Shown: positions 6,066 through 34,203 of the stretch, piece after piece
Layout of the letters: each line of letters starts with the position of its first letter
Numbering within the stretch: the first letter of the stretch is position 1
IMG/VR virus record: IMGVR_UViG_3300037479_000361
Span: 1-42,766 of that record
Source: a virus
Lineage: Duplodnaviria > Caudoviricetes
DNA: 42,766 nt
Strand: one strand, 5' to 3'
Translations under genes and position numbers: made by a program
The notes under the pieces: model-generated
Database searches by the model: none
What the model was told of the DNA's origin: nothing
The model's input: the letters and a program-made list of their open reading frames with translations, nothing else

Positions 6066-7141
6066 GGTAATTCCTTCCTCGGCTGCCCCCGCCGTCCATC
6101 GGACACTTTTGCCCGTTGTGGTTGTGCATGTTGTGCATAGGAGGGGGAGCGGAGCGCCCCCCCCTGCGCTCGAAGATCGTCCAGAATCCGCGCCGCCCGC
6201 GCGGTCAGGTCATCTTCGTCCTCGAAGATGCGCCGCACGACCGCCGCCAGGTAACTGAGCGGCCGCTGTGCGGTCCCCAACGAGTCTTCGACCCGCCGCA
6301 AGGCCCCATCGACGGCCCTGGGGCCGTACAGCGCCACCAGGTTAGCGATCCGGCCTCCCTCGCGTGGAGACCGTCTGATGCCTGGAATGGCGCGGTATCG
6401 GCCGATAAACTCGGCGATTTGCGTCCTCAGCTGTGTCAGGTCGCCATCGGCGGCTCCGCCGCCAACAAAAAGCGTGTTGGCGGCGGTAGAAAGAGTCTCT
6501 AAGGATTGCAAGGGCTTCGGTTCAAACCGCAGTTCCAAAGAACGAGAAGCAGTACCAAACAGAGCACTTTCTACCGGCTCTGCAGTGGTAGTAGTACTAC
6601 TGGCGCCGTCCGACAATTTCTGCGCATCGGGGGGGGGGCGGAGCGCCCCCCATAGGGGGGGCGGAGCGCCCCCCCCCGAGGTTTCTCGCTTTTCGGGGTA
6701 TGGGGGGCGCTCCGCCCCCCCCTCGCCCTCGGCTTCCCAGTCCAGCACATCGTCCGCAAACGCGTCGTCGGTGTCCTCCCATCCGCCGGGGACCTCAGCG
6801 GTCAGTGGCGCATACAGCCGGTAGAAGATCCCTTGGATCCGACCGCCCGCGCCGAAGCCGCGCGCTTCCGCCATCAACCCGGCGTCGATCAGTTCCAATC
6901 GCGCACGTCGCAGCCCCCGGTTGTCCGGACGACCAGGAAGCAGCGGCTTCAAGACGGCGCTCGATGGCAAGCGGCTCGTCCCGCTCCGGTGCAGGTAGCG
7001 CGCCAGCAGACAGTACATCCGCAGCGCCATCACTGAGAGGGGCACCTTCAACACGCTGATCGGGATGCTTACCGTCTGCGCCATGCCGATGCGCGCGGGA
7101 GGAGTCGGCAACATCCGGCGCCTGCGCTTATGAGACGACAT
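6062..7141 (-). CDS. Phage replication initiator (N-terminal wHTH, low-complexity linker, helical C-terminal domain)
   Basis: LSVMALRMYCLL...GLRRARLELIDAGLM...IFYRL wHTH; PLSYLAAVV C-terminal motif; internal repeats; lies between RusA and loader. Confidence 0.75.
   Translation of the reverse strand: MSSHKRRRRMLPTPPARIGMAQTVSIPISVLKVPLSVMALRMYCLLARYLHRSGTSRLPSSAVLKPLLPGRPDNRGLRRARLELIDAGLMAEARGFGAGGRIQGIFYRLYAPLTAEVPGGWEDTDDAFADDVLDWEAEGEGGAERPPYPEKRETSGGGAPPPLWGALRPPPDAQKLSDGASSTTTTAEPVESALFGTASRSLELRFEPKPLQSLETLSTAANTLFVGGGAADGDLTQLRTQIAEFIGRYRAIPGIRRSPREGGRIANLVALYGPRAVDGALRRVEDSLGTAQRPLSYLAAVVRRIFEDEDDLTARAARILDDLRAQGGALRSPSYAQHAQPQRAKVSDGRRGQPRKELP
6629..6722. repeat. Iteron-like Gn-CGGAGCG-Cn repeats (putative origin), fourth copy at 6143-6164
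   Basis: Direct copies 6629-6651 and 6655-6677, inverted copy 6702-6722; 6631-6654 and 6699-6722 form a perfect 24-bp inverted repeat. Confidence 0.8.
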
Positions 7142-15906: not shown

Positions 15907-16137
15907 GTGGCCTATCGTCCCGCGACGTTTTGGGCCGCGCGGGGGCCGTGGGTCTTGACCTGCTTGGGGCCAGAAGGCCGTGGGACGTGCGCGTGGGAAG
16001 CCCGGGCGAACACGATGCTGGACGTTGCGATGCTCGCTCAAGAGCATCTGGGGTTGACGCTTTCTTCTGGGCGTGGCAGTGGCGGTCGAGCGCGCCAGCC
16101 ATTCGCGGATCATTGGGTCCGATGGACTTCCGCCTGA
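15907..16137 (+). CDS. Small C..C..H..H protein
   Basis: Fills gap between terS and terL. Confidence 0.45.
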   Translation: MAYRPATFWAARGPWVLTCLGPEGRGTCAWEARANTMLDVAMLAQEHLGLTLSSGRGSGGRARQPFADHWVRWTSA

Positions 16138-17706: not shown

Positions 17707-18525
17707 ATGGACCTGAGCCGGCTGATCGGTCGCAGTCTTTCCGATGGGCGCCGCTGGTGGTATTGCGGACCGCAACGATCACTCACTGTACAGCTCGCGT
17801 CGTGGCGGTGGTCCGTGGGATTCCACATCGGCGATCACGACGGGAAGGACGAACGCGGCATCGGGTTCCATGTAGGGTTCGTCTACGTTACTCTCTCCGG
17901 CTTCGGACCCCGCGTGGCGACCTCCCTTGGTCTCAAGCGATCACGCGGACCAACGCAGCGTCACTATGGAGTCTCTCTTCATGGTGGCGCTGTGTGGGTC
18001 GATTGGGCGCATGATTATTTGAGCGCGACGAAGGCGTCTGGGAAGCAGCGCCAGTGGATGGACTACGATCTCTACGGTCAGACGCCTACAGGAGGATGGA
18101 CCTGGAGCTGGTCGTGGCTCGACGCCCTGCTGGGGAAGTCCGTATATTCCTCCCGCCCCCTTCAGGGCCCAGGGAAGGCATGGGTGTATTGCCCTGAGGG
18201 ACGCTATGAGGCGATCGCAACGATCGAGATGGCAGAATGGCGGCGCCCACGGTGGCCGTGGCCAGCACGCCTCCGCCGCCTGGAGCTAAACATCCCCAGC
18301 GGCATCCCTGTGCCTGGCAAGGGGGAAAACTCCTGGGACTGCGGAGATGATGCCACCTACGGCGTCACGATGTCGATGCGCCCAGGCGAGACGTTGGTAC
18401 TCGCCATCCAGCGGTTTGTCCGGGAGTGTATCTTGCGCGATCGTGAGAAGTACGCGAACGCAAGCTGGACTCCACGGGAAGCCTGGGCGAAGGCGATCTG
18501 GGAGAAAGCAGGGACCCCGTCATGA
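17707..18525 (+). CDS. Conserved Trp-rich phage hypothetical protein
   Basis: GAGGAG SD; WRRPRWP and PGKGENSWDCGDD motifs. Confidence 0.75.
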   Translation: MDLSRLIGRSLSDGRRWWYCGPQRSLTVQLASWRWSVGFHIGDHDGKDERGIGFHVGFVYVTLSGFGPRVATSLGLKRSRGPTQRHYGVSLHGGAVWVDWAHDYLSATKASGKQRQWMDYDLYGQTPTGGWTWSWSWLDALLGKSVYSSRPLQGPGKAWVYCPEGRYEAIATIEMAEWRRPRWPWPARLRRLELNIPSGIPVPGKGENSWDCGDDATYGVTMSMRPGETLVLAIQRFVRECILRDREKYANASWTPREAWAKAIWEKAGTPS

Positions 18526-19295
18526 CGCGCGTAGTGCTCGCCATTCCGCGCTTCCGGTTCATCTACCCGGCGGCGGAGCGATTCCTCGTCGAGGCGCTCC
18601 AGCGGCTGCGCCCGCCTCAGTGGGACGTGCATGTGATTCCAGGGGATACCTTGGCGGAGTGTTATCTGGACGAGGCGCGCGAGCGGATTGCCGAAGAGGC
18701 AGTCAATCTCGGCGCAGACGCGGTGATGATGGTCGACGCGGATCAATACGTGGCTGGAGAAGAGACGGAGCGGTTGTTGACCGAGACGATCGCCGGGCAG
18801 TGGGCGGCGCTCGGCGTGCCGTACCCTTGTCGTGGGCGTGGTGATCCTGGGTGGCATCACCCGCCTGAGCGCACGTCCCCGACAGAGGACGATCTGGACG
18901 AGATGCTGGACGCGATCGAGCGCGCAGCGCCGCTGGCGTGTCGTGGGTTCATCGGCGGCAGTGCGTTTGCGATGTGGGTCCCGGCGCTGGCGCGCATTCC
19001 GCGGCCCTGGTTCTTGCGTGAGTCCACTGAACGGATGGTGGGGGAGGATGTGTGGTTCAGCCGACGAGCCCTGGCGGCCGGGTGCCGGATCGGGATTCAC
19101 TTTGGGATACGCGCCGCGACACACTATGGAGGCTACCCATGGAAAACGGACGAGATGATCGCCAGGATCCAGTTCCGCCTGAGAGCGCACCAGCTGCACC
19201 GGAAGCTGAGCCCAGCTCCCAGAAGCCCCTCACCGACGTCGACTACAAGACTGTCTGCGCCTGCGGAGCCGACCTCTCGTCCGCCAGCTTCATGA
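18522..19295 (+). CDS. GT-A fold glycosyltransferase (GT2-like)
   Basis: VMMVDADQ DxD motif; RPWF...GEDVWFSRRALAAG. Confidence 0.8.
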   Translation: MTRVVLAIPRFRFIYPAAERFLVEALQRLRPPQWDVHVIPGDTLAECYLDEARERIAEEAVNLGADAVMMVDADQYVAGEETERLLTETIAGQWAALGVPYPCRGRGDPGWHHPPERTSPTEDDLDEMLDAIERAAPLACRGFIGGSAFAMWVPALARIPRPWFLRESTERMVGEDVWFSRRALAAGCRIGIHFGIRAATHYGGYPWKTDEMIARIQFRLRAHQLHRKLSPAPRSPSPTSTTRLSAPAEPTSRPPAS

Positions 19296-19450
19296 TGACG
19301 GACATCACTGGCGCCCCGCTGCCGTTGGGACCCAACGGGACGCCGGTCGTGTTGATGCCACTGCGGTGCCGCAAATGTGGCGCATACCAATTCAAGGTTT
19401 CTGAGGGGCGCTCGCGGATCTACATTCCTGGGCGCGGCAGGATTTCCTAA
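19139..19450 (+). CDS. Zn-ribbon protein, Mu Com-like cysteine spacing
   Basis: GGAGG SD; VCACGADL...PLRCRKCGAY. Confidence 0.65.
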   Translation: MENGRDDRQDPVPPESAPAAPEAEPSSQKPLTDVDYKTVCACGADLSSASFMMTDITGAPLPLGPNGTPVVLMPLRCRKCGAYQFKVSEGRSRIYIPGRGRIS

Positions 19451-19482
19451 CCCACAGCAGAATCCTTCCCGGCGGGACGAGG

Positions 19483-19545
19483 GCTCGCTGACTCATTGAC
19501 CTGAGAGGCGCCCGAGGTCCAGGAGCGCCTCGATGGGTCACGAGC
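19483..19545 (+). promoter_or_regulatory. Hairpin ending right before the ATG at 19546, containing a CUGA-stem-AGG motif
   Basis: GCTCG/CGAGC, TGACTCATT/GATGGGTCA and GAGGCGC/GCGCCTC stems; CTGA-CTCA-ttgacc-TGAG-AGG at 19488-19508. Confidence 0.7.
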
Positions 19546-19815
19546 ATGCCGGCCGATAGCAGACTTCCGATCGGGCAGTTGACCCTCGAATCTCCTTCGC
19601 AGAAGTGTCTCGCGGTGACTCCAAGCGATAGCGTTGACCTGGATCCTTGGGCCCGTGCGCTCTATGTGGGGAACACCGGCAACGTGCGGGTACTCACCTG
19701 GAGCGGGGATGATGTGATCTTCAGCAACGTCCAAAACGGGATGATCCTGCCCGTATCCGTCAAGCGCGTCTTCGCCGCCAGCACAACGGCGACCAACATC
19801 GTGGCGTTGTGCTAA
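19546..19815 (+). CDS. Head spike base protein (RcGTA Rcc01079-like)
   Basis: AVTPSDSVDL..ARALYVGNTGNVRV...GMILPVSVKRV..TTATNIVAL. Confidence 0.88.
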   Translation: MPADSRLPIGQLTLESPSQKCLAVTPSDSVDLDPWARALYVGNTGNVRVLTWSGDDVIFSNVQNGMILPVSVKRVFAASTTATNIVALC

Positions 19816-19838
19816 GGAGTAGGAGGAGGCCATCGACG

Positions 19839-20480
19839 ATGCACACCGACTATACGCGCCTGCGGCCAGCGACCAGAGAGCAGATCCGCGCCGCGTACCG
19901 CGGACAGTTTCAGGATGAATGGCTCATAGCGTTCTGGCGCGCGTGGCGCGCACCTGGCCATGGGTCACGACTGCTCGATCTCCTATCTCCCTATCCGGCC
20001 ATCCGGGGCGGGGCCCGGAACTTCTTTGCGCAGACGACCTCGGTGCGCATCGGCACGGTGGCCGCCGCCTTCAAGACGATCTTGCAGCTGCTCGGAGGCA
20101 CCAACGTCATCACGGTGGTGCAGTGGGCGGAGATCGGCTTCTTCGGCACAAGCAACACCGCGGAGCCCGCGAACGTCGAGATCCTGCGCCAAACGTCCGC
20201 GGGCACCGGGGGCAGCCCGCGAAACCCCCTCAAGACCAAAGACACCAGCACCTCGCTGCTCGTGACCGGGCAAGAAGGACCGGCCTCGGGGGCCTGGACG
20301 ACCGAACCTACTGCTGGAGACATCCTGAAGGCCTTTCCGATCCACCCACAGTCCGGGTTCGTCTACCCGCTGCCGTTACCTGACGGTGAAGTCGAGATGC
20401 CGTCCGCCGGTCGCCTGGGCTTGCGGGTCAACATCGCCGCGGCCGTCGATGTCCGTGTGGGGTGGGGAGGCGAAGAGTGA
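19839..20480 (+). CDS. Virion beta-sandwich protein with a 58-aa N-terminal leader ending PAIRGG
   Basis: Strong AGGAGGAGG SD; composition switches from Arg/Trp-rich to Thr/Gly-rich after GG. Confidence 0.7.
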   Translation: MHTDYTRLRPATREQIRAAYRGQFQDEWLIAFWRAWRAPGHGSRLLDLLSPYPAIRGGARNFFAQTTSVRIGTVAAAFKTILQLLGGTNVITVVQWAEIGFFGTSNTAEPANVEILRQTSAGTGGSPRNPLKTKDTSTSLLVTGQEGPASGAWTTEPTAGDILKAFPIHPQSGFVYPLPLPDGEVEMPSAGRLGLRVNIAAAVDVRVGWGGEE

Positions 20481-20782
20481 CCCTGATCTGGCAACAGCTG
20501 GAGGGCCCACAGACTCTCCAGACCCTCGGCCTCGCGGCAGTCACCCTCGTGACGGTCGCCCTCGTGGCCTGGTGGCGGTCCGATCCCATCTGGGCCCACC
20601 GATTCGTTCCCTGGCGCCAGCTCGCGCTGTGGGGGTGGCAAGTCCTGTGTTGGGCTCGCGGGCATCAGTGGATGGGCCGCGAGCTCGACCTGATGCGCGC
20701 ACTGCCAGGGTTTCGCAATCCGTACCTGTGGATCTGCGGCCGCTGTGGCGCCGCGGCCGTGCGGGAAGAGGACGGGACGTAG
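20477..20782 (+). CDS. Membrane-anchored small Zn-binding protein (DUF1660-like)
   Basis: TM segment; LCWARGHQW...ICGRCG. Confidence 0.6.
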   Translation: MTLIWQQLEGPQTLQTLGLAAVTLVTVALVAWWRSDPIWAHRFVPWRQLALWGWQVLCWARGHQWMGRELDLMRALPGFRNPYLWICGRCGAAAVREEDGT

Positions 20783-20788
20783 AGTCAA

Positions 20789-21619
20789 ATGCCAGTTGTT
20801 GCTCCGGCCATCTTCCAGCGGGTCTTCCAGTCGAGCCTGACGGCCTCGGCTCGCGCGGGGGCAACCGTGACCGCCAGCGCGACGGCGCATACGATGGGGT
20901 CATGGGCCTCGCTGATCGATCCTACGAACGTCCCCAGTTACGGGATCTATGTCGTCGTGCGCGATATCAGCGGCGCGGCGGCTGACACGCGGTTCCTGAT
21001 TGATATCGGCATCGGTCCCAGCGGCGGCGGCAGTGAAGCGGTCGTCCTGCCCTTCCTCGATGTCGGCGCCGCCGACTCAGCGACGAATGCGCTGGGCAAG
21101 CAGTGGTACTTTCCGATCTACATTCCGACCGGTCTCCGCGTGTCCGCCCGCGGGCAGGCGGTCACAGGGAGCGACACCTGTACAGTCGCGATCTGGCTGG
21201 CACAGCAGCCATTGTTCCCCTACCTCGTCTCAGCGTGGGATACCTACGGTGAGAATGCCGCGGCCAGTTCAGGGACCTCGGTGACTGCAGGGAACGGCGT
21301 CTTTGGGTCCTGGACGCAGATCGTCGCGAGCACGTCTCGGTTTCACAACCTGTGGCACTCAGGGTATAGCATCGGCACCGACACGACCATCGTGGCCGCG
21401 GACACGCTGGTCGAAATCGGGCACGGGCCGGATAGCGCGAACGTCCAGTCGATCGGCATGTGGCGGTATCGCCAGAACGCGAGTGAAGCCCTGGATGGGC
21501 CGATGCCCGAAATTCCGCTCTACAAACCCGTCCCGAGTGGCGCCGGCCTGTTTGCCCGCATCGCCTCGGCGGAAGCCGAAGCACGGCGCGTCGTCATCCA
21601 CGCCGGCTTGGCGGCCTAA
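20789..21619 (+). CDS. Virion protein with internal two-domain duplication
   Basis: GATVTAS..GSWASL and GTSVTAG..GSWTQI repeats. Confidence 0.7.
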   Translation: MPVVAPAIFQRVFQSSLTASARAGATVTASATAHTMGSWASLIDPTNVPSYGIYVVVRDISGAAADTRFLIDIGIGPSGGGSEAVVLPFLDVGAADSATNALGKQWYFPIYIPTGLRVSARGQAVTGSDTCTVAIWLAQQPLFPYLVSAWDTYGENAAASSGTSVTAGNGVFGSWTQIVASTSRFHNLWHSGYSIGTDTTIVAADTLVEIGHGPDSANVQSIGMWRYRQNASEALDGPMPEIPLYKPVPSGAGLFARIASAEAEARRVVIHAGLAA

Positions 21620-21623
21620 CGCG

Positions 21624-21806
21624 ATGCCGATCCTCGCGTGTCCCATCGATGGCCTGGCGGTCGCGCTGATCTCTCCAGCACTGCGCGGGGACGTGGCGCG
21701 CGATCAAACGACGCACCTGCATCTGATGTGGGACGAGACGTTTACCTGTCTGAACGGGCACCAGTGGCGCCTACGGGCAGAGATGATCTTGGAGCGCGTC
21801 GGCTGA
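21624..21806 (+). CDS. Small Zn-binding protein
   Basis: CPIDG...TCLNGHQW. Confidence 0.6.
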   Translation: MPILACPIDGLAVALISPALRGDVARDQTTHLHLMWDETFTCLNGHQWRLRAEMILERVG

Positions 21807-21807
21807 G

Positions 21808-22146
21808 ATGGCCGTCACCGAGCACGCGAGCGGGACGCAAACCGCGACGATTGCCACCGAGCACTTCCTCGGGACGGATCCGGATTCGACCGATGGGGCA
21901 TTTCAGTTTGTGGTCGACCTCTCCAACATGGCCAATGCCGACGACCTGGAGATCCGGGTCTACGAAGCGGCACTGTCGAGCGACGTGGCCTCACAGCAGG
22001 TGCACATGTGGCCCATCAAAGACGCTCAGGCGGATGACCTGTTCATCTCGCCGGCCTTGGTCTTGCTCCATCGGTGGCGCTTCTCGATCAAGCAGGTCGC
22101 CGGGACCGGGCGCTCGTTCAAGTGGAGCATCCGGCGGGTCGCGTAG
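21808..22146 (+). CDS. Small virion beta-sandwich protein
   Basis: SGTQTATIATEH...VDLSNMANADDLEIR...QVAGTGRSF.WS. Confidence 0.75.
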   Translation: MAVTEHASGTQTATIATEHFLGTDPDSTDGAFQFVVDLSNMANADDLEIRVYEAALSSDVASQQVHMWPIKDAQADDLFISPALVLLHRWRFSIKQVAGTGRSFKWSIRRVA

Positions 22147-22494
22147 ATGAGCGGATTCGTCGGTTACGGCTTCGAGGTCCTCCACCCGGAAGCCGGCCCG
22201 CCACCGCCAACCGAGCATTATGCCGCGCGCTTGATACGTCGGCCCGCCTCCATCCGCCACCGGCGTCGAGCGGTCTGGACCGCACGGGTGCAACTATTGG
22301 CGCCGCCTCCTCCCCCAACGGTCCGTCATGCGACGATGGAGACGCAGATCGGCCGAACAGTCCGCCACCGCGCGCCTCGAGCGGTGCGCGCAAGCATGAC
22401 GTCACTGGCCCCGGCGCTCCTGGGCGCCGCGCCGGCCGCCGCAGGAGTCTCGCGATGGAGATGGATCGGCCTGAAAGCGACACTCGGGATCTGA
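22147..22494 (+). CDS. Arg/Pro-rich hypothetical protein (possible linker/adaptor)
   Basis: Abuts upstream stop and fills the gap. Confidence 0.55.
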   Translation: MSGFVGYGFEVLHPEAGPPPPTEHYAARLIRRPASIRHRRRAVWTARVQLLAPPPPPTVRHATMETQIGRTVRHRAPRAVRASMTSLAPALLGAAPAAAGVSRWRWIGLKATLGI

Positions 22495-22506
22495 GAGGAG
22501 CCGCCC

Positions 22507-23334
22507 ATGGGTAGCGTCGTCCTAGATGAAGTCACCCTGCTTGCCGCGATCGCGACCGGCAGCGCGGAGTATAACTTCAAAGGGCGCGAGGTGGCGATCA
22601 AGGTCACCATCGAGTTCTCGGTGGGTTCCGACGCCGGGGGGGTCATCCTCGAGGAAGCGGTGACCTCAGGCTTTGCGGGCACGTGGGCGCAACTGGCCAA
22701 TGTACCATGGGTCGCGGCCAACCGCGTCCATACCGTGCAGATCAATCAGGTGCTGCGCATCTTGCGCGCGCGCATCTCCCCGAACATCGGGAATGGCACC
22801 GTCACCGTCAAGCTCTCCGGAGGGCTCGACAGCACCGGCGGCGGCGGGGTCGCCATCGACGGCTTCCCGCTGGGGATCCGCTCGCTGCAGGACTGGCTCT
22901 CGCGTCTGCTCACGGGGGCGAATGCCCCAGTGGTGGAAGTCCGCGGCTATGATAGCGTCAACAACGCGATCCGCGTGATCTCGGGATCCCCGGCGATCGC
23001 ACATCTCTACAAGACCTCCAACCGGGTGAACGCGGGCGATATCATCACCTGGGTCCCGGCCAACACGCTGCGGACGCGCATAATGCAGTATTCCATGAGT
23101 GGCACGGCCGCAGGGCTTGTGGCCTATCGAGAGAACACCGGTTCGATCGGCGCGCCGGTGTGGACGAGTCGCTATGAGCATCGACTCGGCGGGGACGGGC
23201 CAGGGGTTATCAACGCGCAGCCTGAACCGATCGTGGGACCGGCCGGGGATGGCGTGGGCGCGACGGCAAAACTCGAAGTGCTCTCCGGCACCGGGACCTT
23301 CTACGGCACGATGCTGGGTTACGAAAGCACCTAA
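22507..23334 (+). CDS. Two-domain virion/decoration protein
   Basis: GAGGAG SD; two beta-rich domains joined by a Gly linker. Confidence 0.7.
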   Translation: MGSVVLDEVTLLAAIATGSAEYNFKGREVAIKVTIEFSVGSDAGGVILEEAVTSGFAGTWAQLANVPWVAANRVHTVQINQVLRILRARISPNIGNGTVTVKLSGGLDSTGGGGVAIDGFPLGIRSLQDWLSRLLTGANAPVVEVRGYDSVNNAIRVISGSPAIAHLYKTSNRVNAGDIITWVPANTLRTRIMQYSMSGTAAGLVAYRENTGSIGAPVWTSRYEHRLGGDGPGVINAQPEPIVGPAGDGVGATAKLEVLSGTGTFYGTMLGYEST

Positions 23335-23339
23335 AGGAG

Positions 23340-23636
23340 ATGGGTATGGGTCTTCCCGTGCGCGTCGTGACGGAATCGAATGGCGAGTATTCGATCCGGT
23401 CGCCGATGCAGGGCATGACGATTGAGGAAGCCCGTGCGCGTGCCCAAGAGGATCAGCCGCATGTGCGCATCGTGACGGATGCAGAAGAGATTGCGCACCT
23501 ACTGGAACTCTCCTGGGAAGACCGAAAACGTCTGGACACCGAACTCCGTGCCCTGCGCGATGCGGTAGAGGAGATGCAGCGGCGGTACGAAGCGATCATC
23601 CGGGATCTGGAGTCCCGCTTGGCGCGGCAGGTCTAA
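23340..23636 (+). CDS. Coiled-coil protein (fibre chaperone-like)
   Basis: AAAGGAG SD; C-terminal heptads. Confidence 0.65.
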   Translation: MGMGLPVRVVTESNGEYSIRSPMQGMTIEEARARAQEDQPHVRIVTDAEEIAHLLELSWEDRKRLDTELRALRDAVEEMQRRYEAIIRDLESRLARQV

Positions 23637-23637
23637 T

Positions 23638-24711
23638 ATGGCAACCCAGACCGTACGTGGATTCATGATTCAGGAACCCTGGACCAACACGTCCAACAAC
23701 ACACCCACCTACAACACCTTGCTGATGGACGCAGCGGGTGAACAAGCCGCCTATATCGTTCGTGCCCCGAAGGCGGGGAACATCCGCAATGTCCATGTGC
23801 GAGCAAATGCCGTGACGACGGCCACGGACAGCGACTTCCGCGTCGAAACAGTCAGCCTCACGACAGGATTGCCCACAGGTACGTTGTGGGCCGCCAACAC
23901 CAACGTCACTGTCGCTGCGGCCTCAATTACCGCCAACACCTGGATTCGTAGCGGGGACCTCACTGCTAGTGCGGTGGTTGCACGCCGAGATCTGCTGGCC
24001 GTTGTCGTCACGCCGACCGGCACGCCCAACTATGAACTCTCGACGTTCGCCCCTGGCGGATCGCCAGGAGCAGGATTCCCTTACGCCGCCTCGTTCACGT
24101 CAGGAGCGTGGGGGAAGATTGCGCGGGTACCCGTGGTGGCGCTTGAGTACGACGATGGCTCTTTCGACTACATGCCCGGAGTACTGCCAGCGTCAGCGCT
24201 CAATACCCATTCGTTCAACAGTAGTTCGACTCCTGACGAGATCGCTGCATTCTTCCAGTTTCCAGTTCCGGTGCGTCTCGCGGGCGTATGGTTGTGGGTC
24301 GATAGCGACAACGACTTCGACGTAGTGGTCTACAATGGAGCCGGTACGGAAGTCGAGACGGCGGCTGAAGATGCCGATGTCGATGCGGCGATAACTCCGC
24401 ACATGCCGCACTTTGTCTGGTTCGCCGCCTCTGAGGCTCAGGCTCTTAGCACCAACTTCCGAATTTCTATTCGGCCAACAACGACAGCGAATATCGCCAT
24501 CTATTCTTTCGATGTGCACACTGCCGCGATCCTCGATCAGATGGCCGGTGGCCAGTTGTGGCATCATTCGACTCGGACGGACGGAGGCGCGTGGACGCAA
24601 CTGACGACTCGGCGTCTCTTCATGGGGATCATCGTCGATGGACTCGATGATGGAGTCGCAGGCGGGGGAGGCAGTTACCAGCACAGCGCACTCGTTGGGT
24701 CATTGGGCTAG
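23638..24711 (+). CDS. Virion adhesin/decoration protein, two beta domains plus Gly-linked C-terminal peptide
   Basis: Thr/Asn-rich beta pattern; ends DDGVAGGGGSYQHSALVGSLG. Confidence 0.7.
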   Translation: MATQTVRGFMIQEPWTNTSNNTPTYNTLLMDAAGEQAAYIVRAPKAGNIRNVHVRANAVTTATDSDFRVETVSLTTGLPTGTLWAANTNVTVAAASITANTWIRSGDLTASAVVARRDLLAVVVTPTGTPNYELSTFAPGGSPGAGFPYAASFTSGAWGKIARVPVVALEYDDGSFDYMPGVLPASALNTHSFNSSSTPDEIAAFFQFPVPVRLAGVWLWVDSDNDFDVVVYNGAGTEVETAAEDADVDAAITPHMPHFVWFAASEAQALSTNFRISIRPTTTANIAIYSFDVHTAAILDQMAGGQLWHHSTRTDGGAWTQLTTRRLFMGIIVDGLDDGVAGGGGSYQHSALVGSLG

Positions 24712-24721
24712 ATGGCCATCA

Positions 24722-25094
24722 TCACCTGCGAAGAGAGGAGAGATATGACAGAACAGTCTTGCGGGTTACTCCTATATCGAAAGCGATTTTCTCGATTGAA
24801 TGGAAATCCCGCCGCATTTCCAGAATCATCTCTTTATCTCTTTGTGCAAACCGTTTTCCACTTGCCTGGCGTCCCATGTTGATGTGGCGACCGTTGTGCC
24901 GTGCGGGATCGCAGTGTGGCTATTTGTCGGGTGCGCGTAAGATGATCAGGAATCTTCAGACCAAGCCTCATGGCTTTATGTGCGATCGCTACAGGAGATC
25001 GACCCAAGAAATCAGAGACTTTCTGTCCGCCGTATTCTGCGTAGTACTTCTTGAGATATGCAATTTCTTGTTTACTCCAGCGGTATGCAAGCAT
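24722..25094 (-). CDS. Antisense low-GC insert: double-HTH DNA-binding protein with +1 frameshift at TTTT 24854-24857
   Basis: WSKQEIAYLKKYY...LGRSPVAIAHKAMRLGL, then in the shifted frame DKEMILEMRRDFHSIEKIAFDIGVTRKTVLSYL; GGGGGTG SD; 123 aa if repaired. Confidence 0.7.
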
Positions 25095-25120
25095 GGAATG
25101 ACACCCCCGGTATTCTCGAC

Positions 25121-28100
25121 GTGGCGACAAGAACAAGCATAGCCTCGGGAAACTGGACCGCCGCTATTTGGGACGGAGCAGTTCCGACCGCCGCCGACGA
25201 TGCGGTGCTCAACCATCTCGTCACTGGCGACGCCACCACGCTCGTCTGCCGAGACTGCACCATCAATGCTGGAGGTACCTACCGCGCGTCGCGCAGCGTC
25301 AATAGTACCCTGACGATTGGCCGCAACCTTGTGGTCGCTGGCGGCATCCTGGATCTGGGCACCTTCAACGATCGCATCCCCGCGAACGTCCAAACCAGGC
25401 TGCTGTGGAACATCGTCGGGCTTGAGGCCGGGTACGTGGGTGGCGACACCGAGGTTCCGCTGGCGACTGATCCTGGGCTCTGGGTCATTGGGAATGGCCA
25501 GGTCTTTGCGCACGGCGCCATCAAGGATACTTGGACCAAAATCGTCACGGCCCCCATCGGCGTCGGAGCAACCAGCGGTGCGATCTCCGGAATTTACACC
25601 CAGGGCTGGGCGCCAGGAGATGAGATTGTCTTCTCTGACACGCACCTTCGGCTCTCGAACTCCGACAACCAAGATGAGGTGCGCACGCTAAGCACGATCT
25701 CGGGAGTCGTCGGCGATGCGAGTCGCACAATTACTTGGGCGTCGGGACTCTCCTTCGCGCACGAGTACCTCGCTGTGCCAGTGTGGACCGATCCGTTCGG
25801 CGATGCCTGGAATGAAGTGTTGGCCGGCGAGGTCTCGAATCTGACCAAGAATGTCATCCTCGACACGTCGACGGGCACCAACACGGACGCGCCGCATTTC
25901 ATGGTCCTGGACAACGGGAAGGTCTATCTCGAAGACGTGCGGATCGACCACTTCTCGCCAGTTTCAACGCGCAACCCGATGGGGCGCTATGCGCTCCATA
26001 TCCACCAGCAGTTCGAAGGCTCTCGCGGCAGTTACATCCGCCGCTGCATCGTCGCCAACACTAAGGGAGGCGGCGTCTTCGTCCATGAGAGCCATGGGGT
26101 CACAGGCGAAGACAACGTGTTCTACAACGTGGCGCGCGTTTTCTCCACAGGCGAGCAGGTCTCGACGGCGCTGAACCTGGAAGTCACGGTTACCCCGCCC
26201 TCTCGCGGCCCTGACATCATCCCGGCGATCTCGGCAAATGACTTTCGGTGGGAGCGCGGCCTGTCGATGCGCACAGGCACTACGGCTGGCAGCGATACGC
26301 GATCGGCGGCGTTTTGGGCTGGCGTGGGCGCGTTCAACGCATCCTTCTTGGGTTGTGTGGCCTCGGGGCATTCTGGAGGTTCAGACTCGGCGGGGTTCCT
26401 CTGGCCTGAAGGCGCGGCAAACTCCTTTCAGCAAACCCATGCGCCGCGCTGCGAGTCGCACTCGAACTGGCCCCATGGCTTCTTCCTCCATCAGAACTCT
26501 GGCCATGTGGCTCCAATGCAGGTTATGGTCGACTGGATCGCGTGGCGCAACGGTCGCCATGGAATGCAGGAGGGCGCGTATGTCTCCGGATTTCATACGC
26601 ACCAGTTTCGCGGGATCGAAAACGGCGCAGCGCAACTGATCCACTCGGTGATCGGTCGGCAGGTCACCACGTTCCTCGCTGATCCGCGCAACCTTGCCGG
26701 CGCTTTCGGCGTGCGCATCCTGCGCTATGTTCTCGATTCGGTGGTCGATTCGTACTACCGCGATGGCGTCGTGCGGAATGTCGCGTCTGGCCAAACGGCC
26801 GTTGGGCACGACCCCACCGGCGGCGTTGCCGGCTCGCTCATTTTCGCCCAGTTCGCGCGGGTAACCTGGTCAAACATCAGTGGCACATTGCTGCTCTTTG
26901 GTCCCGGACCGCCTCCACCGGTCGGTTCGCATCTGCGGATACGCAACGCGACTGGGCTGGCGTCGCTCGGCCACGGGACCGATTTCACGATCTATCGTCA
27001 GGACGATCCCGCCAATCCAGGCGTGTTCGCCGCCAACGTCAACGGCGATGTGGACACGCCCGATACCGCGAATACGGTGCCACTGACCCCGAGGTGCTTC
27101 TTGACGATCTCGACCGGGGATGACGGCCTCGAGCCGGTCGCCAATGCCCAAGGGCAGCGGATCGTGACGCTGACAGTCGCCACGCGCGATGCGACTGCCT
27201 TTGCGCGCCCCGACGCGCATGTCGTGGATTTCTACCTGGATAATGACTCCCAACTGCTCGCCAGCGTGGTCCCCGATGCCAGCGGCGTCGCGACCTTTCA
27301 GTATAACGTTGCGGCCTTTCCGCATCGCCGGCCGTACTTCTTTGCACGCGCCCGTTACACCAGCGGTCCGAACGCGAGCGTCGAGGGCACAGCCAGCCGG
27401 GTGCTCCGGGTGCGCCGCGCGATCGGCGCCTCGCAGGTCGATCCTACCGCCCCTACCCTCACGTCGCTCACGAACCCCAGCACGGGCGTACTGCGTTGGG
27501 CCTGGGGCGACGTGGCCAACGAAGTCTCTTATGATCTCGAGACTTCGCCGGACAACAACAACTGGACCGTTCGCGGGACTGCTGGCTCGAATAGCATCAC
27601 TGCAGACTGGACCGCCGCCACGCCGGGGGCGACCTATTGGGGACGCGTAGTCGCAATCGGGCCGACCGGAAACCGGTTTCCGAGCAACAGCATTCAGCGG
27701 ACGCTGGCGGTCGCCGTCCCTGCGGCGCCGCTGAACCCGCGCGCAGCGAACGTGACGACGACCACGTTTGATGTGCAGTTCGAGGACAACAGTGGAGGCG
27801 GAGACGACGACGAGACCACCTGGCATGCGCGCGTCCGAACGCCACCGACCACTGGCACGTATGAGGCCACGATCAATCAGGCAACGGCAACTGGTGCGGG
27901 AACTGGCTCGACCGTGACGATCGCTATTACCGGACGCACGGCGTCTACGCAGTATGAGGTCGAAGTCTGGGCCTCAAATGCCAGCGGGGAATCGACCCGG
28001 CAGACCTTCACCATCACGACGAATGCCGCGCCTCCGCCCAATCCAGGGACCCCGACGATCAACAGCGCCGTGGCGATCTCGCCGACCCAGATCGACGCGA

Positions 28101-28735
28101 CCTGGACGAACGTGGCTGATGAGCAGGGGTACGATCTGGAGTCCTCACCGGCTGGGGCTGGAACTTGGACGGTGCGGCGCACCTTTTCGGCGGACGAGAC
28201 CTCTGGAAGTTGGCTGACTGCGGTGCCGAATACCGCCTACGATATCCGCGTCGTGGCGTTTTCTGGTGCAGTGCGCGCGGCTAGCGGGTCGATCGCGGCG
28301 ACGACGCCGGCGGCGATCCCGGCGGCGCCCATCTCACCGCGCGTGGCGGATATCGGGACGGGGACGGCTAATTTCATCGTGACCGACAACTCCGGGGCCG
28401 CGGGAGATCCTGAGACCGCGTTTGAAGCACAGTATCGAGACGAAACAGACCCGGGGAACCCGAGCGCCTACGTGAGCCTGTCGAACGCCGCCTCTCAACC
28501 CGGCACCGGGACGGAGATCACCTTTGCGTTGAGCGGGCTCACGGCTGGCCGGACCTACCGCGCGCGATCGCGCGCGATCAATGCGACGGGCAACTCCGCG
28601 TATGCCGAGACGACGTTCACGACGCAGCCGCCCGCGCCGCCCGGCCCTGTAGGGGGCTCCGGCAGAGCCGATGGACGCTTCGGCTCCTATCTCCGCGCGC
28701 TGGTGGTCGGCCGGCGCAAGTTCTGGTCGTCATGA
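25121..28735 (+). CDS. Large virion adhesin/depolymerase: G8-like + CEMIP/fibrocystin-type beta-helix + Ig-like + four Fn3 domains
   Basis: TSIASGNW..WDGAVP; GEVSNLTKNVIL; MGRYALHIH; VHESHGVTGEDNVFY; Fn3 W..Y..V.A patterns. Confidence 0.8.
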   Translation: MATRTSIASGNWTAAIWDGAVPTAADDAVLNHLVTGDATTLVCRDCTINAGGTYRASRSVNSTLTIGRNLVVAGGILDLGTFNDRIPANVQTRLLWNIVGLEAGYVGGDTEVPLATDPGLWVIGNGQVFAHGAIKDTWTKIVTAPIGVGATSGAISGIYTQGWAPGDEIVFSDTHLRLSNSDNQDEVRTLSTISGVVGDASRTITWASGLSFAHEYLAVPVWTDPFGDAWNEVLAGEVSNLTKNVILDTSTGTNTDAPHFMVLDNGKVYLEDVRIDHFSPVSTRNPMGRYALHIHQQFEGSRGSYIRRCIVANTKGGGVFVHESHGVTGEDNVFYNVARVFSTGEQVSTALNLEVTVTPPSRGPDIIPAISANDFRWERGLSMRTGTTAGSDTRSAAFWAGVGAFNASFLGCVASGHSGGSDSAGFLWPEGAANSFQQTHAPRCESHSNWPHGFFLHQNSGHVAPMQVMVDWIAWRNGRHGMQEGAYVSGFHTHQFRGIENGAAQLIHSVIGRQVTTFLADPRNLAGAFGVRILRYVLDSVVDSYYRDGVVRNVASGQTAVGHDPTGGVAGSLIFAQFARVTWSNISGTLLLFGPGPPPPVGSHLRIRNATGLASLGHGTDFTIYRQDDPANPGVFAANVNGDVDTPDTANTVPLTPRCFLTISTGDDGLEPVANAQGQRIVTLTVATRDATAFARPDAHVVDFYLDNDSQLLASVVPDASGVATFQYNVAAFPHRRPYFFARARYTSGPNASVEGTASRVLRVRRAIGASQVDPTAPTLTSLTNPSTGVLRWAWGDVANEVSYDLETSPDNNNWTVRGTAGSNSITADWTAATPGATYWGRVVAIGPTGNRFPSNSIQRTLAVAVPAAPLNPRAANVTTTTFDVQFEDNSGGGDDDETTWHARVRTPPTTGTYEATINQATATGAGTGSTVTIAITGRTASTQYEVEVWASNASGESTRQTFTITTNAAPPPNPGTPTINSAVAISPTQIDATWTNVADEQGYDLESSPAGAGTWTVRRTFSADETSGSWLTAVPNTAYDIRVVAFSGAVRAASGSIAATTPAAIPAAPISPRVADIGTGTANFIVTDNSGAAGDPETAFEAQYRDETDPGNPSAYVSLSNAASQPGTGTEITFALSGLTAGRTYRARSRAINATGNSAYAETTFTTQPPAPPGPVGGSGRADGRFGSYLRALVVGRRKFWSS

Positions 28736-28786
28736 CAGGAACGCGCGTGCGGCGCCGCGAAGAGTGGCCGCCGACTGGAGCCGCCG

Positions 28787-28981
28787 ATGCCTCCTGAGGT
28801 CGTGAACGCGATCACCACCGCGCTGATGGGCGCGCAACGGAAGCCGGATCTAGGCCAAGGCCGTCTGCACCCGCCCCGGCAGGACGGCTACCGGGTCATC
28901 TTTCGCGCTCGAGAGAAACGTCGTTCGACAACACACCCGGCAGCACGTGGAGGGAGGAGCACCTATGGCCAAGACCGCTGA
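28787..28981 (+). CDS. Hypothetical protein
   Basis: GGAG SD; fills gap. Confidence 0.4.
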   Translation: MPPEVVNAITTALMGAQRKPDLGQGRLHPPRQDGYRVIFRAREKRRSTTHPAARGGRSTYGQDR

Positions 28982-29171
28982 TGCCATCACCGCCGCGATG
29001 TTCCGCCGCCGCCGCGCCCCGATCACATCCCGCGCCGGCCGCGGTCGGGTCAGCGCCAAGATCAGTCACCTGCGCGGTGAAGGCGAGCCGCAGAAAAAGG
29101 CCGTCGCCATGGCGCTCAACATGGAACGCGCGGGGCGCCTGGGGCCACGCGGCGGTTATCGCCGCTCCTGA
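28965..29171 (+). CDS. Small basic phage protein (DUF6496-like)
   Basis: VSAKISHLRGEGEPQKKAVAMAL; strong SD. Confidence 0.7.
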   Translation: MAKTADAITAAMFRRRRAPITSRAGRGRVSAKISHLRGEGEPQKKAVAMALNMERAGRLGPRGGYRRS

Positions 29172-30985
29172 TGGCGCTCGCGCTTTCTGATCCCTCGTCG
29201 CCGCAGGATCCGCGCGCGGCGCGGTCCTCGCCGATCGATCGGTCGTTCGGCACACCAGACGAGCTCCTCCGGCGCGTGATCCAGGACTTCGAGGCGAGCT
29301 ATGCCTTCCTGCGCCCGTATTTCACGAAGTTCCTGCGGTTCTATCGGATGTACCGGTCACACAGTCCCAAGAAGGCGCGCCCATGGCGCGCCGATGTGTT
29401 CGTGCCGATTCCCTTTGCCTCGGTGGAACACGGCCTGGCCACGATTATCGACGCCTACAGCCAGCGGCCGCTCTTCACGGTGCTCCCGCGGGAAGGCACG
29501 GACTACACAGGCGCCAAACAGTTCGAGAAGTACTTAGAGTGGGAAGACGACGATGCGGCCACGCTGCTGCCGCTCTTCTCGAGCTGGAAAGACACGCTGA
29601 ACTACGGTACCGGGTGGCAGAAAGTGCTGTGGGATTGGGCGGCGCAGCGCAACAGCGTCGAAGACATCTCGACGTACAACTGCTTCCCGGATCCTTGGGC
29701 CGAGGATGTCGACGACGCCGAGTACATCATCCATCGCGCGCTGCGCAGCCCGACCTACGTGCAGCGCATGGTCGATGCCGGCTTCTACGACTTGCAGGGT
29801 GAGACCGTCGAAGGGCTCGCCCGGATGCCGTGGGGGCAGGATCTGGAAAGCGAGCAGCTCTTGGGCGAGATCGGGCTCTCGCGGCCTGGCGATCAAGCAC
29901 AAGGGCGGTATCGAATCGAAGTCTTGGAGCGGTGGTCAGACAATTCCATCATCACGGTGCTCAACCGCCATCGCGTCGTGCGGGCCTGGGCCAACGGCTA
30001 CGGCATCAAGCCCTTCGTCCGTTACGTCGACCACTTCGTGCCCCATGAGCTGATGGGGATTGGCGAACACGAGGTCATCGAGCGCCTCGTCAGCGAGCTC
30101 AACGACATCCGCGGTCAGCGCCTGGACGTCGTCAGCATGATGATCAACAACATCCTGGTGGCCAGCAAGCTCGCCGGGATCGATCCCGAGACGCTGATCT
30201 GGCGACCGGGGCAAACCATCTGGGCGAACGACATCCAGGGGATCCGTCCACTGATCGCCTCGCAATCGGGGAACCCCGCTCTCGGCGTCCAGGAGGAAAC
30301 CGTGGTGCGGTTCGACGTGCAGGAAGCCACAGGGAACTGGGGCTACAACCAGGGCCAGGTCCCCAACCGCCGAGAAGCCGCGACGACCGTGCTGGCGCTG
30401 CAGCGGGCGGCCGGCCTACGCTTCACGTCTAAGATGCGTTACAACGAGACCGGCGCCATGCGCAAGCAAGCTAAGCTTCGGATGCGGAACGCGCAGCGAT
30501 TTCTCCCCGCGACGCGCTGGATCCGCGTCACCAACCAGGTCCCGGTCCAACTACGCCGGGAGGATCTGGCGGGCGAATACGACTTCATCCCCACGGTGAG
30601 CAGTGCAGAGCCGCGAGAGGCCCGGCGCGCCGCGATCGGACAGATCCTGCCGATCCTGATGAACTCCGAGCGGATCCGTGACGACAAACTGCTGGCGTTC
30701 GTGCTCGATCTCTACAACGTGCGTGAGAAAGAGGCGTTTCTGCGCACCGACGAAGAGATGCAGCAGGTGGCGCTGGCGCGCGCGCTCCAACAGGTCGCCG
30801 CCCGCGCGGGCGGGAATTCTTCGCGAGGAGGCGAACGGCGCATGCCGACGATGATTGGCGGGATGGCGCCAGAGGCGGCTCAGCTTCCGAGCGAGCTTGA
30901 GGATCTGGGCGGGAATGGCGATGGTGGCGCCCTGGACGCGGCCGGGCGCCAGTATCTCGCCGAGGCGCTCCAGCTGCGAGGGTAG
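29171..30985 (+). CDS. Portal protein (podovirus-type)
   Basis: 604 aa; YGTGWQKV, FPDPWA, YGIKPF, EAATTV patterns; head-module position. Confidence 0.9.
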   Translation: MALALSDPSSPQDPRAARSSPIDRSFGTPDELLRRVIQDFEASYAFLRPYFTKFLRFYRMYRSHSPKKARPWRADVFVPIPFASVEHGLATIIDAYSQRPLFTVLPREGTDYTGAKQFEKYLEWEDDDAATLLPLFSSWKDTLNYGTGWQKVLWDWAAQRNSVEDISTYNCFPDPWAEDVDDAEYIIHRALRSPTYVQRMVDAGFYDLQGETVEGLARMPWGQDLESEQLLGEIGLSRPGDQAQGRYRIEVLERWSDNSIITVLNRHRVVRAWANGYGIKPFVRYVDHFVPHELMGIGEHEVIERLVSELNDIRGQRLDVVSMMINNILVASKLAGIDPETLIWRPGQTIWANDIQGIRPLIASQSGNPALGVQEETVVRFDVQEATGNWGYNQGQVPNRREAATTVLALQRAAGLRFTSKMRYNETGAMRKQAKLRMRNAQRFLPATRWIRVTNQVPVQLRREDLAGEYDFIPTVSSAEPREARRAAIGQILPILMNSERIRDDKLLAFVLDLYNVREKEAFLRTDEEMQQVALARALQQVAARAGGNSSRGGERRMPTMIGGMAPEAAQLPSELEDLGGNGDGGALDAAGRQYLAEALQLRG

Positions 30986-30989
30986 CAAG

Positions 30990-31301
30990 ATGCCGAAGAT
31001 GACCGTCGAGGTGGCACAGCAGCTGCTCGCGCGGCCGCAGTATGTCATCGAGTTTCTTGACGAAGCCATCGCGACGCTCGCCGCGGCCACGTTGGATGGC
31101 GATGTGACGCCCGAGGAGCTCTTGCGCCGCCGCGGGATCCGCGATGGGCTCAAGATGGCCGCAGGGTTCTTTCATGAAGCGCGCAGTGTGCTGCGAGCGG
31201 CGGCGGACGAGGCGGCTGACCAGGATGCCGCGAGAACGACCGATATGGTCCCTCCGGGGTTGCTCGATGCCTTGGTGTACCCGCGGACGAAGGAATCCTG
31301 A
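30990..31301 (+). CDS. Small helical protein between portal and scaffold (Bbp19-like position)
   Basis: EELLRRRGIRDGL helix; synteny. Confidence 0.65.
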   Translation: MPKMTVEVAQQLLARPQYVIEFLDEAIATLAAATLDGDVTPEELLRRRGIRDGLKMAAGFFHEARSVLRAAADEAADQDAARTTDMVPPGLLDALVYPRTKES

Positions 31302-31480
31302 TGGACGGCCGCGAACCCCTGCGCTCGTGTGAAGATCGGCTGCTGACCTGGTTGCGCGCGCAAGCGAAGCAGATCGCCCATGGCGCGGTGCAGGTCCAGC
31401 TGAAAGCCGAAGTTCAGGACGGCGTGGTCGTGATGATCCGTTTGACGGGCCCCGCCGAGATCGAGCAGCGGTTTCGATAG
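31301..31480 (+). CDS. 59-aa DUF2292/YezD-like protein (absent from ORF track)
   Basis: MDGREPLRSCEDRLLTWLRAQAKQIAHGAVQVQLKAEVQDGVVVMIRLTGPAEIEQRFR; TGATG coupling. Confidence 0.7.
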   Translation: MDGREPLRSCEDRLLTWLRAQAKQIAHGAVQVQLKAEVQDGVVVMIRLTGPAEIEQRFR

Positions 31481-31487
31481 ATCGTCC

Positions 31488-31539
31488 CTGACCACATCCT
31501 GGAGGGGGCGCGCAGTTGCGGCGCTCTCTCTTCGTTTTT
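31488..31539 (+). terminator. CUGA-stem-AGG motif overlapping an intrinsic terminator-like hairpin
   Basis: CTGA-CCA-catcc-TGG-AGG at 31488-31505; GAGGGGGCGC/GCGCTCTCTC stem 31502-31530, then TTCGTTTTT. Confidence 0.7.
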
Positions 31540-31551
31540 GGAGGAGGCACG

Positions 31552-32454
31552 ATGTCAACACAACCGACGCCCACTCCTGCCGTCGAGGGAGATGTGCTTG
31601 GACTCTTGACGCCGGAGGCGCCAGCTCCTGGCGCCACGGCTCCGACGCCGGCGGCCGCCGCACCACCTCCTGCGGCCCCCGCACCAGCACCTGCTCCGAG
31701 CCCCACGCCCCCGCCTGCGGCGCCGTGGCTGACTCCTGAGCAGCTGGCCCGATTCCCGGAGATGGCGCGCTTCGCGTCGCTGGACGACGCCCTGGCCGCC
31801 GCCGCCGGGCATGCGCAACTCCTCGGGCAGTACGAAGAGGCCGGGCTGGATCCCGCCGCCGTGCTGCAGGACCTCCTGGCACCAGAACCGGGGACGCAGA
31901 CCGCAACGACCGCCGCGCCAGGGATTGCACCGAACGAGGCTGAGTCTCTGGATGCCGACCTCGCCGATCCGAGTCGCTTCATTGACCGATTCACCACCGA
32001 TCCGCGCGGGACCGTGTATCACCTGATCGACCAGCGGATGCAGGAAGGGTTCGCTGGCCTGATGCAGCGATGGACCGCCGGGGCGGAAGTCGGGAAAGAA
32101 ATCTGGGAGGCGGTGAAGAGCAAGCACCCAGACGCCGCGCAATACGATCGGCAGATGGCTGAACTGATCATGAAGGCCCCGCAGTTGCTCTCGATCTACC
32201 CCAAAGAGGAACTCGGGGAACGGCTCTATGCGATGGTGACCAGCGGTACGACCGCCGCCGCCGCCGCGTCCGCCGCGGCGAGCCAGGCGGCCGAAGCCGC
32301 GCGGGTCGCCGCCATCGACGCCATGCGTGGCACCGTGGGAGAATCCGGCCGGGCCGGAGGGGCTCCTCCAGGAACACCAACGGGTGCCGGCGCTGGCGTG
32401 GTCGACGAACTGCTTGGGAGCGGACCGCCATCCGTGACGCTCCGACCACTCTAA
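31552..32454 (+). CDS. Capsid scaffolding protein
   Basis: Pro/Ala-rich acidic helical protein directly before the MCP; GGAGGAGG SD. Confidence 0.8.
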   Translation: MSTQPTPTPAVEGDVLGLLTPEAPAPGATAPTPAAAAPPPAAPAPAPAPSPTPPPAAPWLTPEQLARFPEMARFASLDDALAAAAGHAQLLGQYEEAGLDPAAVLQDLLAPEPGTQTATTAAPGIAPNEAESLDADLADPSRFIDRFTTDPRGTVYHLIDQRMQEGFAGLMQRWTAGAEVGKEIWEAVKSKHPDAAQYDRQMAELIMKAPQLLSIYPKEELGERLYAMVTSGTTAAAAASAAASQAAEAARVAAIDAMRGTVGESGRAGGAPPGTPTGAGAGVVDELLGSGPPSVTLRPL

Positions 32455-32477
32455 CCGTGAAAGGAGATTGACCGGCG

Positions 32478-33663: not shown

Positions 33664-33754
33664 GGTGCGGGCCTAGCGGCAGCGCACCATCCACGGAGAG
33701 GAGGCACAGGGCAAGTGGGACCCCCTCCATTTGACCTCTGTGCCTCCTAGTGGA
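33664..33754 (+). promoter_or_regulatory. Tandem hairpins after the capsid gene
   Basis: GGTGCG/CGCACC and AGGAGGCACAG/CTGTGCCTCCT stems, no U-tract. Confidence 0.6.
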
Positions 33755-33771
33755 CGAATTGAGGAGTCACC

Positions 33772-34203
33772 ATGACCGTCACCTCACAGCAGGAGCGGGC
33801 TGTCTTCATCAGCCGATTCACCAATCAGCGGTTCGTGGTCCAGCCACCACGCCGGCGATTCCACCCAACAACGGGCGAGGAGATCGAAAACGTTGTCGGC
33901 AGCGTCATCGAGTTCCGCGCCAACCGCTTCGAGACGGACGACCCTGACCAGATCGCCTTCTTGCGAGCTCGCCTCGGCCCGGAGCTGATGGAGTTGCCGC
34001 CCGGGGCCGATACCCCTGAAGGATTGGCTGCCGACGCCGTCAAGATCGTCGGCCAGGCCACCACGCAGCGGGAACCGCTCAAGAAAGACTACCGGTGCAA
34101 GCAGTGCGGTGAAGCGTTCGCGGAACCGCTGGCGCTCGCGCGGCACACGAACGCCAAACACTCCCGCCACAAAGATGCGGAGCCATCGCCGGCGGACGGC
34201 TAA
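33772..34203 (+). CDS. Head-associated protein with C-terminal C2H2 zinc finger
   Basis: IEFRANRFETDD; YRCKQCGEAFAEPLALARHTNAKH. Confidence 0.8.
   Translation: MTVTSQQERAVFISRFTNQRFVVQPPRRRFHPTTGEEIENVVGSVIEFRANRFETDDPDQIAFLRARLGPELMELPPGADTPEGLAADAVKIVGQATTQREPLKKDYRCKQCGEAFAEPLALARHTNAKHSRHKDAEPSPADG

Follow-up and report, generated by a model that had tools for sequence, protein, structure and literature searches.

In Bacillus subtilis HutP, and in BglG/LicT with their RAT sites, a small hairpin stabilised by a protein excludes an overlapping terminator. In phage Mu com–mom, as described in PMC6483171, a small CCCC-type ORF (PF10122) lies directly upstream of the target gene and an inhibitory hairpin covers the next start. 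That paper gives the bipartite Com consensus GAGNNCC(N)2–3GAGNNCC and has Com binding CC(N)2–3GAG in a hairpin loop, and PMC6240691 describes com-like genes upstream of genes for bacteriocins and for lysis, where their role is unexplored. The DUF2292/YezD/OscA proteins (PF10055), the third point of comparison, are uncharacterised.

We analysed the whole of IMGVR_UViG_3300037479_000361, a single virus record of 42,766 bases and 66% GC (hereafter the window), whose integrase, terminase subunits, SU10-type portal, capsid and adaptor genes indicate a temperate tailed phage. Public assemblies with matching sequence came from two freshwater metagenomes, one of which, possibly the source assembly, is identical over 18500–32600. 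No sequence variants were seen in the listed pieces of two DNA runs, those of the second run having no coverage of the motif described below. Elsewhere in the window, 38–3865 (+) encodes a large polyvalent protein with an LPD38 domain, and 17707–18525 (+), between the terminase and the spike-base leader, weakly resembles, below the cut-off, the Acb3 family of CBASS inhibitors (E = 7.5e-4) and also phrog_20814. The features discussed here are as follows.

19139–19450, + strand: 103-aa ORF with a CxC...CxxC zinc-ribbon pattern, Com-like by resemblance only (SD −9.3; GC3 0.75 in the non-overlapping part)
19483–19545, + strand: OFF hairpin predicted by folding, which uses both motif strands, has its last base directly in front of the spike-base ATG and lacks a U-tract
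19486–19510, + strand: DUF2292/YezD-type RNA hairpin, copy 1 (core 19488–19508, CUCA/UGAG upper stem; from sequence, scans and folding)
19514–19529, + strand: bipartite SELEX consensus for Com, matched exactly here and nowhere else in the window
19521–19559, + strand: SD AGGAG (19521–19525) and an 8-codon uORF (19533–19559) that overlaps the spike-base start by 14 nt (from sequence and shuffles)
19546–19815, + strand: head spike base protein, RCAP_Rcc01079 family (NF048002, 98.3 bits against a cut-off of 28)
19581–19591, + strand: coding-strand segment predicted by folding to re-pair with about 19530–19540, re-closing the start region
31301–31480, + strand: 59-aa distant DUF2292/YezD relative, the likely hairpin partner (profile of 28 bacterial PF10055 proteins, E = 4.8e-4)
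31483–31510, + strand: DUF2292/YezD-type hairpin, copy 2 (core 31488–31505; from sequence, scans and folding)
31501–31539, + strand: intrinsic terminator predicted by folding, overlapping copy 2 and followed by a free SD and a scaffold-like ATG at 31552

The spike-base leader resembles Mu com–mom, as set out in PMC6483171, in its small CCCC-type ORF directly upstream, its inhibitory hairpin over the next start, its match to the bipartite GAG(N)2CC consensus and its predicted CC(N)2GAG loop. It differs in that the zinc-ribbon protein fails the tests against Com profiles and its cysteine pairs are separated by about 27 residues; according to the same source, the Mu site lies beside the inhibitory hairpin, whereas here it lies inside, and the Mu target is a DNA-modification gene, whereas here it is a head spike base. 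A second, DUF2292-type hairpin would also belong to the switch here. With DUF2292/YezD loci the window shares the same YYGA-stem-ARG hairpin and a distant protein similarity; unlike them, it encodes a protein below the Pfam cut-off, its 19488 copy has a CUCA/UGAG stem that we saw in phages only, and that copy lies about 12 kb from the gene of the protein. At 31488, the predicted hairpin that excludes an overlapping terminator is reminiscent of HutP and BglG/LicT, but as far as our tests reach, protein and RNA are unrelated; there is no sign of an input from a metabolite or from phosphorylation, and the second copy in the phage looks translational. By analogy, the 19488 copy would work in the manner of Mu com–mom and the 31488 copy in that of HutP- or BglG-type antitermination; we claim membership of neither.

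Two motif copies and a DUF2292-like protein

The initial annotation read one motif at two places, CTGA-CTCA-ttgacc-TGAG-AGG at 19488–19508 and CTGA-CCA-catcc-TGG-AGG at 31488–31505, and both sequences and coordinates are correct. A strict scan (Watson–Crick stem of 3–6 bp) returned just these two copies in the window, both on the + strand, and a relaxed YYGA-C..G-ARG scan returned the same two and no others; the YYGA-stem-ARG architecture with a paired lower stem is present in both. Across 200 dinucleotide shuffles the mean was 0.84 copies on both strands and P(≥2 on +) was 0.06, which is weak by itself because the pattern was defined from these two copies, and without the stem requirement the flanks occurred 85 times against 77 expected, that is, at chance level. 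We do not retain the suggestion of covariation within one genome, because different stems in two copies alone are no evidence of it. An Rfam 15 gathering scan of the window gave no matches.

The ORF at 31301–31480 was the top and only significant match to the DUF2292 profile among 788 ORFs of the window, with 83% in hhalign. The alignment runs over a helix, a G and a β-hairpin with DG-V-V, and the predicted model contains a helix and β-strand (pLDDT 75); a structure search with this model was uninformative (best Z 4.9, GnsA, r.m.s.d. 4.4 over 55). The protein falls below the cut-off for a Pfam PF10055 match, and a homologue search with it matched itself alone.

Bacterial PF10055 loci, gathered without the motif of the window as query, carry the same kind of hairpin. 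YYGA-stem-ARG lay behind 16 of 32 such loci compared with 20 of 406 control windows, and behind 20 of 36 with a second pattern. Nearly all bacterial copies have CCRG/CYGG as their upper stem; some are linked to a terminator and others lie close to a start. In 19 bacterial copies, 95.5% of the pairs were formed and three pairs showed double changes, as in none of 500 shuffles, but these counts carry no independent weight, since pairing was the rule by which the copies had been selected. A covariance model built from these 19 copies alone placed 31488 at rank 3 of 24 (E = 0.32) and 19488 at rank 20 of 24 (E = 9, chance level). The best match of the bacterial motif model in the window, at 6908–6938 (−; E = 0.009), lacks the GA and AG positions and lies inside a long ORF on that strand.

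The pairing of protein and hairpin recurs in other phages. Among 8640 ORFs from loci found by scanning for the CUCA/UGAG form, the four best DUF2292-profile matches, from three phages, end 24–66 nt before a CTGA-CTCA/TGAG-AGG copy, each copy being followed by a terminator-like hairpin and a U-tract. These phages are L161 (E = 4e-7, above the PF10055 cut-off), L160 (the same as L292) and L217; the patterns that led to their copies derive from 19488, and scans with such patterns returned mostly chance-like matches. The L161 copy precedes genes that by appearance encode scaffold and capsid proteins, as 31488 does. In a 323-kb phage record (L195/L588, G710), the CUCA/UGAG motif is found where a short ORF ends, ahead of a gene that is holin-like by appearance, with no terminator.

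Other searches returned little. One pattern scan gave two credible matches out of six; 11 genome pattern matches had no DUF2292-like ORF among the top profile matches; 119 and 120 viral loci from pattern scans were mostly chance-like; and a motif-plus-hairpin scan found the stem in 13 of 120 matches, none of them credible. Scanning viral contigs with the DUF2292 alignment gave one locus, which lacks the motif, and a relaxed motif occurred upstream of capsid genes at 4 of 51 loci, none with a DUF2292 match. The retrieved portions of the three phage records contained no clear second copy of the motif. As for close relatives, the spike base had none in viral contigs and one irrelevant locus in metagenomes, the best capsid relative was 45% identical, and ESM Atlas yielded unnamed clusters only. 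The literature searched held no description of the motif or of RNA binding by DUF2292, although the supplement to PMC11109978 could list such a motif.

One or two small RNA-binding proteins had been proposed to act on the motif. A distant DUF2292 relative is indeed encoded, and the hairpin class travels with DUF2292/YezD genes; the likely partner is this protein and not the zinc ribbon.

Competing folds before the scaffold and spike-base genes

At 31488, the motif is predicted to fold first and then to be displaced by a hairpin at 31501–31531 with a U-rich tail (U-tract at 31532–31539), and the SD behind it is strong and free, an arrangement that points to transcriptional control. This terminator is absent from the list of a simple terminator scan, which probably missed it because of a bulge; a promoter and terminator scan of the whole window stayed at chance level.

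The spike-base leader is built differently. The family profile of the downstream gene matches PDB 6tb9 and 8cjz, a relative with 72–73% identity also starts MP at the aligned position, and 95 nt separate the gene from the zinc-ribbon ORF. Folding reproduced the hairpin claimed for 19483–19545, which excludes the motif and ends before ATG 19546 (−35 kcal/mol, z = −3.98, 0 of 200 shuffles); in a wider sequence context z drops to about −1.6, and by GC-adjusted energy this hairpin is the 13th in the window. The absence of a free SD was likewise borne out. Among 23 likely starts, a comparison that excluded one mis-placed position and the uORF start, 19546 was the costliest to open (19.8 kcal/mol) and its SD was the weakest (−3.1); an unverified terminase GTG at 16073 has a weaker SD still (−2.7). 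The second most occluded start tested was that of the portal gene at 29171 (+; 18.5 kcal/mol, SD −5.5), which overlaps the stop of 28965–29171. The strongest hairpin in the window, at 6658–6720 (−53.5 kcal/mol in 63 nt), is a near-perfect GC-rich inverted repeat.

Stepwise folding indicates when the motif could act. It is predicted to be accessible until about 19520, and forming it costs 6 kcal/mol by 19532 and 12 kcal/mol by 19545. In an RNA ending at 19575, fixing the motif cuts the opening cost of the spike-base start from 17.2 to 8.1 kcal/mol. Once 19581–19591 is transcribed, the start is re-paired and the gain from the motif is gone (16.0 versus 15.2 kcal/mol), from which we infer that any switch must be kinetic; likewise, given a predicted cost of about 12 kcal/mol for forming the motif, only kinetic capture would work.

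Of the proposal that one RNA motif stands before both operons, the positions hold, one copy being upstream of the scaffold and capsid genes and the other upstream of the spike-base gene, but the platforms differ. Post-transcriptional co-control of the two operons survives only in part, in that the 31488 copy points to transcription termination and only the spike-base gene appears translationally locked. Control of all decoration genes in the operon found no support: the gene after the spike base, starting at 19839, carries its own strong SD (−12.1; opening cost 9.6), so an operon-wide effect would need polarity.

An SD and start codon that the first reading of the DNA did not contain offer a lead. 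AGGAG lies 7 nt upstream of AUG 19533, which is 24 nt past the motif, the spike-base AUG being 37 nt past it. Ribosome entry at 19533 would explain how the SD-poor, uncoupled spike-base gene is translated. By chance such an SD and ATG arose in 130 of 2000 shuffles and in 48 of 2137 windows taken along the DNA (a null of 2–6.5%), and complementarity to the CAU of the motif may be all that accounts for the uORF AUG. Bacterial copies that lack a terminator are spaced similarly: 14 of 16 stand 18–36 nt before the next start (median 25), a count in which three loci (L441, L443 and L444) were reassigned to this class by eye on account of a U-run after the ATG, one (L447) had no start called and most spacings come from apparently one orthologous operon. 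Three bacterial copies (L434, L446 and L455) show a similar predicted sequestration of the start region, relieved by 4–5 kcal/mol. In the bacterial set (L431–L458 and L590–L592), one motif copy, or two in tandem, often stand between a DUF2292 gene and a gene of about 400–457 aa, some 25 nt ahead of the latter. Several of these loci have no predicted sequestering structure, which hints at a direct effect on initiation.

The 19488 copy could instead act on transcription or RNA processing, as a U-less terminator, a pause or an RNase III-type site that a motif-bound protein prevents from working. The arms of its inner stem (GAGGCGC/GCGCCT) are the same as in the L161 terminator, all three phage copies with a CUCA/UGAG stem are terminator-linked, and a U-less hairpin much like it stands downstream of the capsid gene, a place at which termination or processing would be expected. 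That hairpin, at 33691–33753 (+) in the gap after the capsid gene (−40.5 kcal/mol over 33686–33775; no motif), is itself possibly a terminator, processing or stability element. At 19488, however, the U-tract of the L161 terminator is replaced by a strand that is complementary to the 5′ arm of the motif and ends at the start codon. A test of 19509–19545 as an intrinsic terminator found no U-tract, yet the phage uses one at 31532–31539, and the segment is missing from the simple terminator scan list. The end of the hairpin also coincides with the start of a gene poor in SD, and 19440–20060 shows no C-over-G skew suggestive of Rho loading. We consider an action on transcription or processing distinctly improbable, and favour a translational lock at 19488.

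Nor is it probable, although somewhat less remote, that the leader holds a decayed motif–terminator cassette or a fortuitous fold that keeps spike-base output low, with no protein switch. Few copies of a pentameric vertex protein are needed. The shuffle value of 0.06, the chance-level score of 19488 with the covariance model and the rank of the hairpin by energy all fit such a relic, as does the absence of the motif within 250 nt upstream of the spike base at all 57 distant spike-base loci. It would, however, leave to coincidence that a motif, an anti-motif strand that runs up to the start codon, an SD and AUG at the distance usual for such copies and a Com-consensus site without a second instance in the window meet in one 95-nt gap, and the same phage encodes a DUF2292-like protein beside its second motif copy.

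The zinc-ribbon ORF and the Com-type site

The ORF upstream of the leader had been called Com-like. The resemblance stands (CxC, CxxC), but a family match failed: 19139–19450 had no Pfam match up to E = 10, no PHROG or NCBIfam match and no homologue that we could find. As a candidate Com (PF10122, Zn_ribbon_Com) it lacked a profile match, with E = 0.2 against a profile from 11 PF10122 loci and 48% over 13 columns in hhalign. The low-confidence model (pLDDT 55) had best structural matches at Z 2.0–2.7, several of them zinc ribbons, an uninformative outcome.

GAG(N)nCC repeats were said to lie inside the hairpin, and they do, as GAG(N)2CC-AG-GAG(N)2CC at 19514–19529. This could mean that Mu com–mom logic operates alone, the zinc-ribbon protein binding the repeats and opening the hairpin while CUGA-stem-AGG is an alternative fold and nothing else. 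The site is the only exact SELEX match in the window and lies 63 nt after the zinc-ribbon stop; shuffles contained 0.64 such matches per window length, or 7.5e-4 per 100 nt on one strand. With the motif folded, the freed segment is predicted to form a hairpin at 19513–19531 (−5.3 kcal/mol) with CC-AG-GAG in its loop, the form that Com prefers, and unpairing the core of the site lowers the opening cost from 17.2 to 12.0. Against this, the ORF matches neither PF10122 nor the Com profile, and the repeats cannot make the canonical stem: a stem of 3–4 bp closed by C-G and flanked by repeats is absent, and GGUC and GCGC are unpaired in the SELEX register. A Com-type site was nearby at just 1 of 11 true Com loci examined, and behind 2 of 34 motif copies (L160 and L451). 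Com acting alone, which also leaves the likeness to DUF2292-linked hairpins unexplained, therefore strikes us as a poor bet, and we keep the DUF2292-like protein as the likely partner of the leader.

The zinc-ribbon protein may still contribute to that scheme. The predicted cost of displacing the long stem is 12.0 kcal/mol for the DUF2292-type hairpin alone, 8.5 for the Com-type hairpin alone and 13.3 for both together, so the two small leader hairpins are predicted to cooperate. The case for a role of this protein consists of its position and one consensus site. Com membership failed the sequence tests; a Com-type second input from it at the 19488 leader is a tentative proposal that we would not expect to hold, although it deserves more credit than Com alone.

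Com-type elements were also seen elsewhere. In L160 (601–675; G706), a Com-type GAG..CC-N3-GAG...CC hairpin occupies the loop of the terminator that follows the DUF2292-type motif; this record, 51% complete, gave no Com-profile match. In G708, a Com-like ORF (L586, 17487–17842; E = 2e-5 with our own profile, 0.035 with PF10122) lies 4.8 kb after a motif–terminator copy and is directly followed by an ORF that is YezD-like by eye, with no Pfam match.

A proposed control of two head operons by one small protein

The explanation that we favour, and to which we give an even chance, is that the 19488 copy is the site at which a DUF2292/YezD-like protein unlocks spike-base translation, and that the 31488 copy lets the same protein suppress a terminator. 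The motif hairpin would fold first in the growing RNA. Without protein, invasion from about 19530 would lead to the 63-nt hairpin that buries the initiation region; early capture of the hairpin by the protein would hold off pairing of the downstream strand for some tens of nucleotides. The ribosome would load probably at AGGAG/AUG 19533, the uORF being coupled to the SD-poor start at 19546, or else at that start itself, and the zinc-ribbon protein might supply a second, cooperating input at the CC-AG-GAG loop. At 31488, the same DUF2292-like protein would suppress the terminator predicted upstream of the genes for scaffold and capsid. The new elements are the translational platform and the Com-type site embedded in it.

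The most elaborate version is a two-protein RNA gate in which DUF2292-type and Com-type hairpins, each bound by its protein, displace the inhibitory stem and license translation through the uORF, while the DUF2292-like protein antiterminates the capsid operon. We regard this version in full as unlikely. If true, DUF2292 would be an undescribed RNA-binding family that acts on both transcription and translation, and its wiring with Com-like zinc ribbons would time head assembly before head decoration. Should the zinc-ribbon protein be the second input, the leader would be a rare natural two-protein RNA gate.

DUF2292/YezD is widespread, and we found no described function for it in the literature searched. 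The phage offers a compact test case, with one small protein and two likely RNA sites, one at a predicted terminator and the other at a predicted translation lock. If binding and switching hold, the family would gain a function and an RNA class absent from Rfam 15 would be defined; the control of phage late genes would then have an extra post-transcriptional layer.
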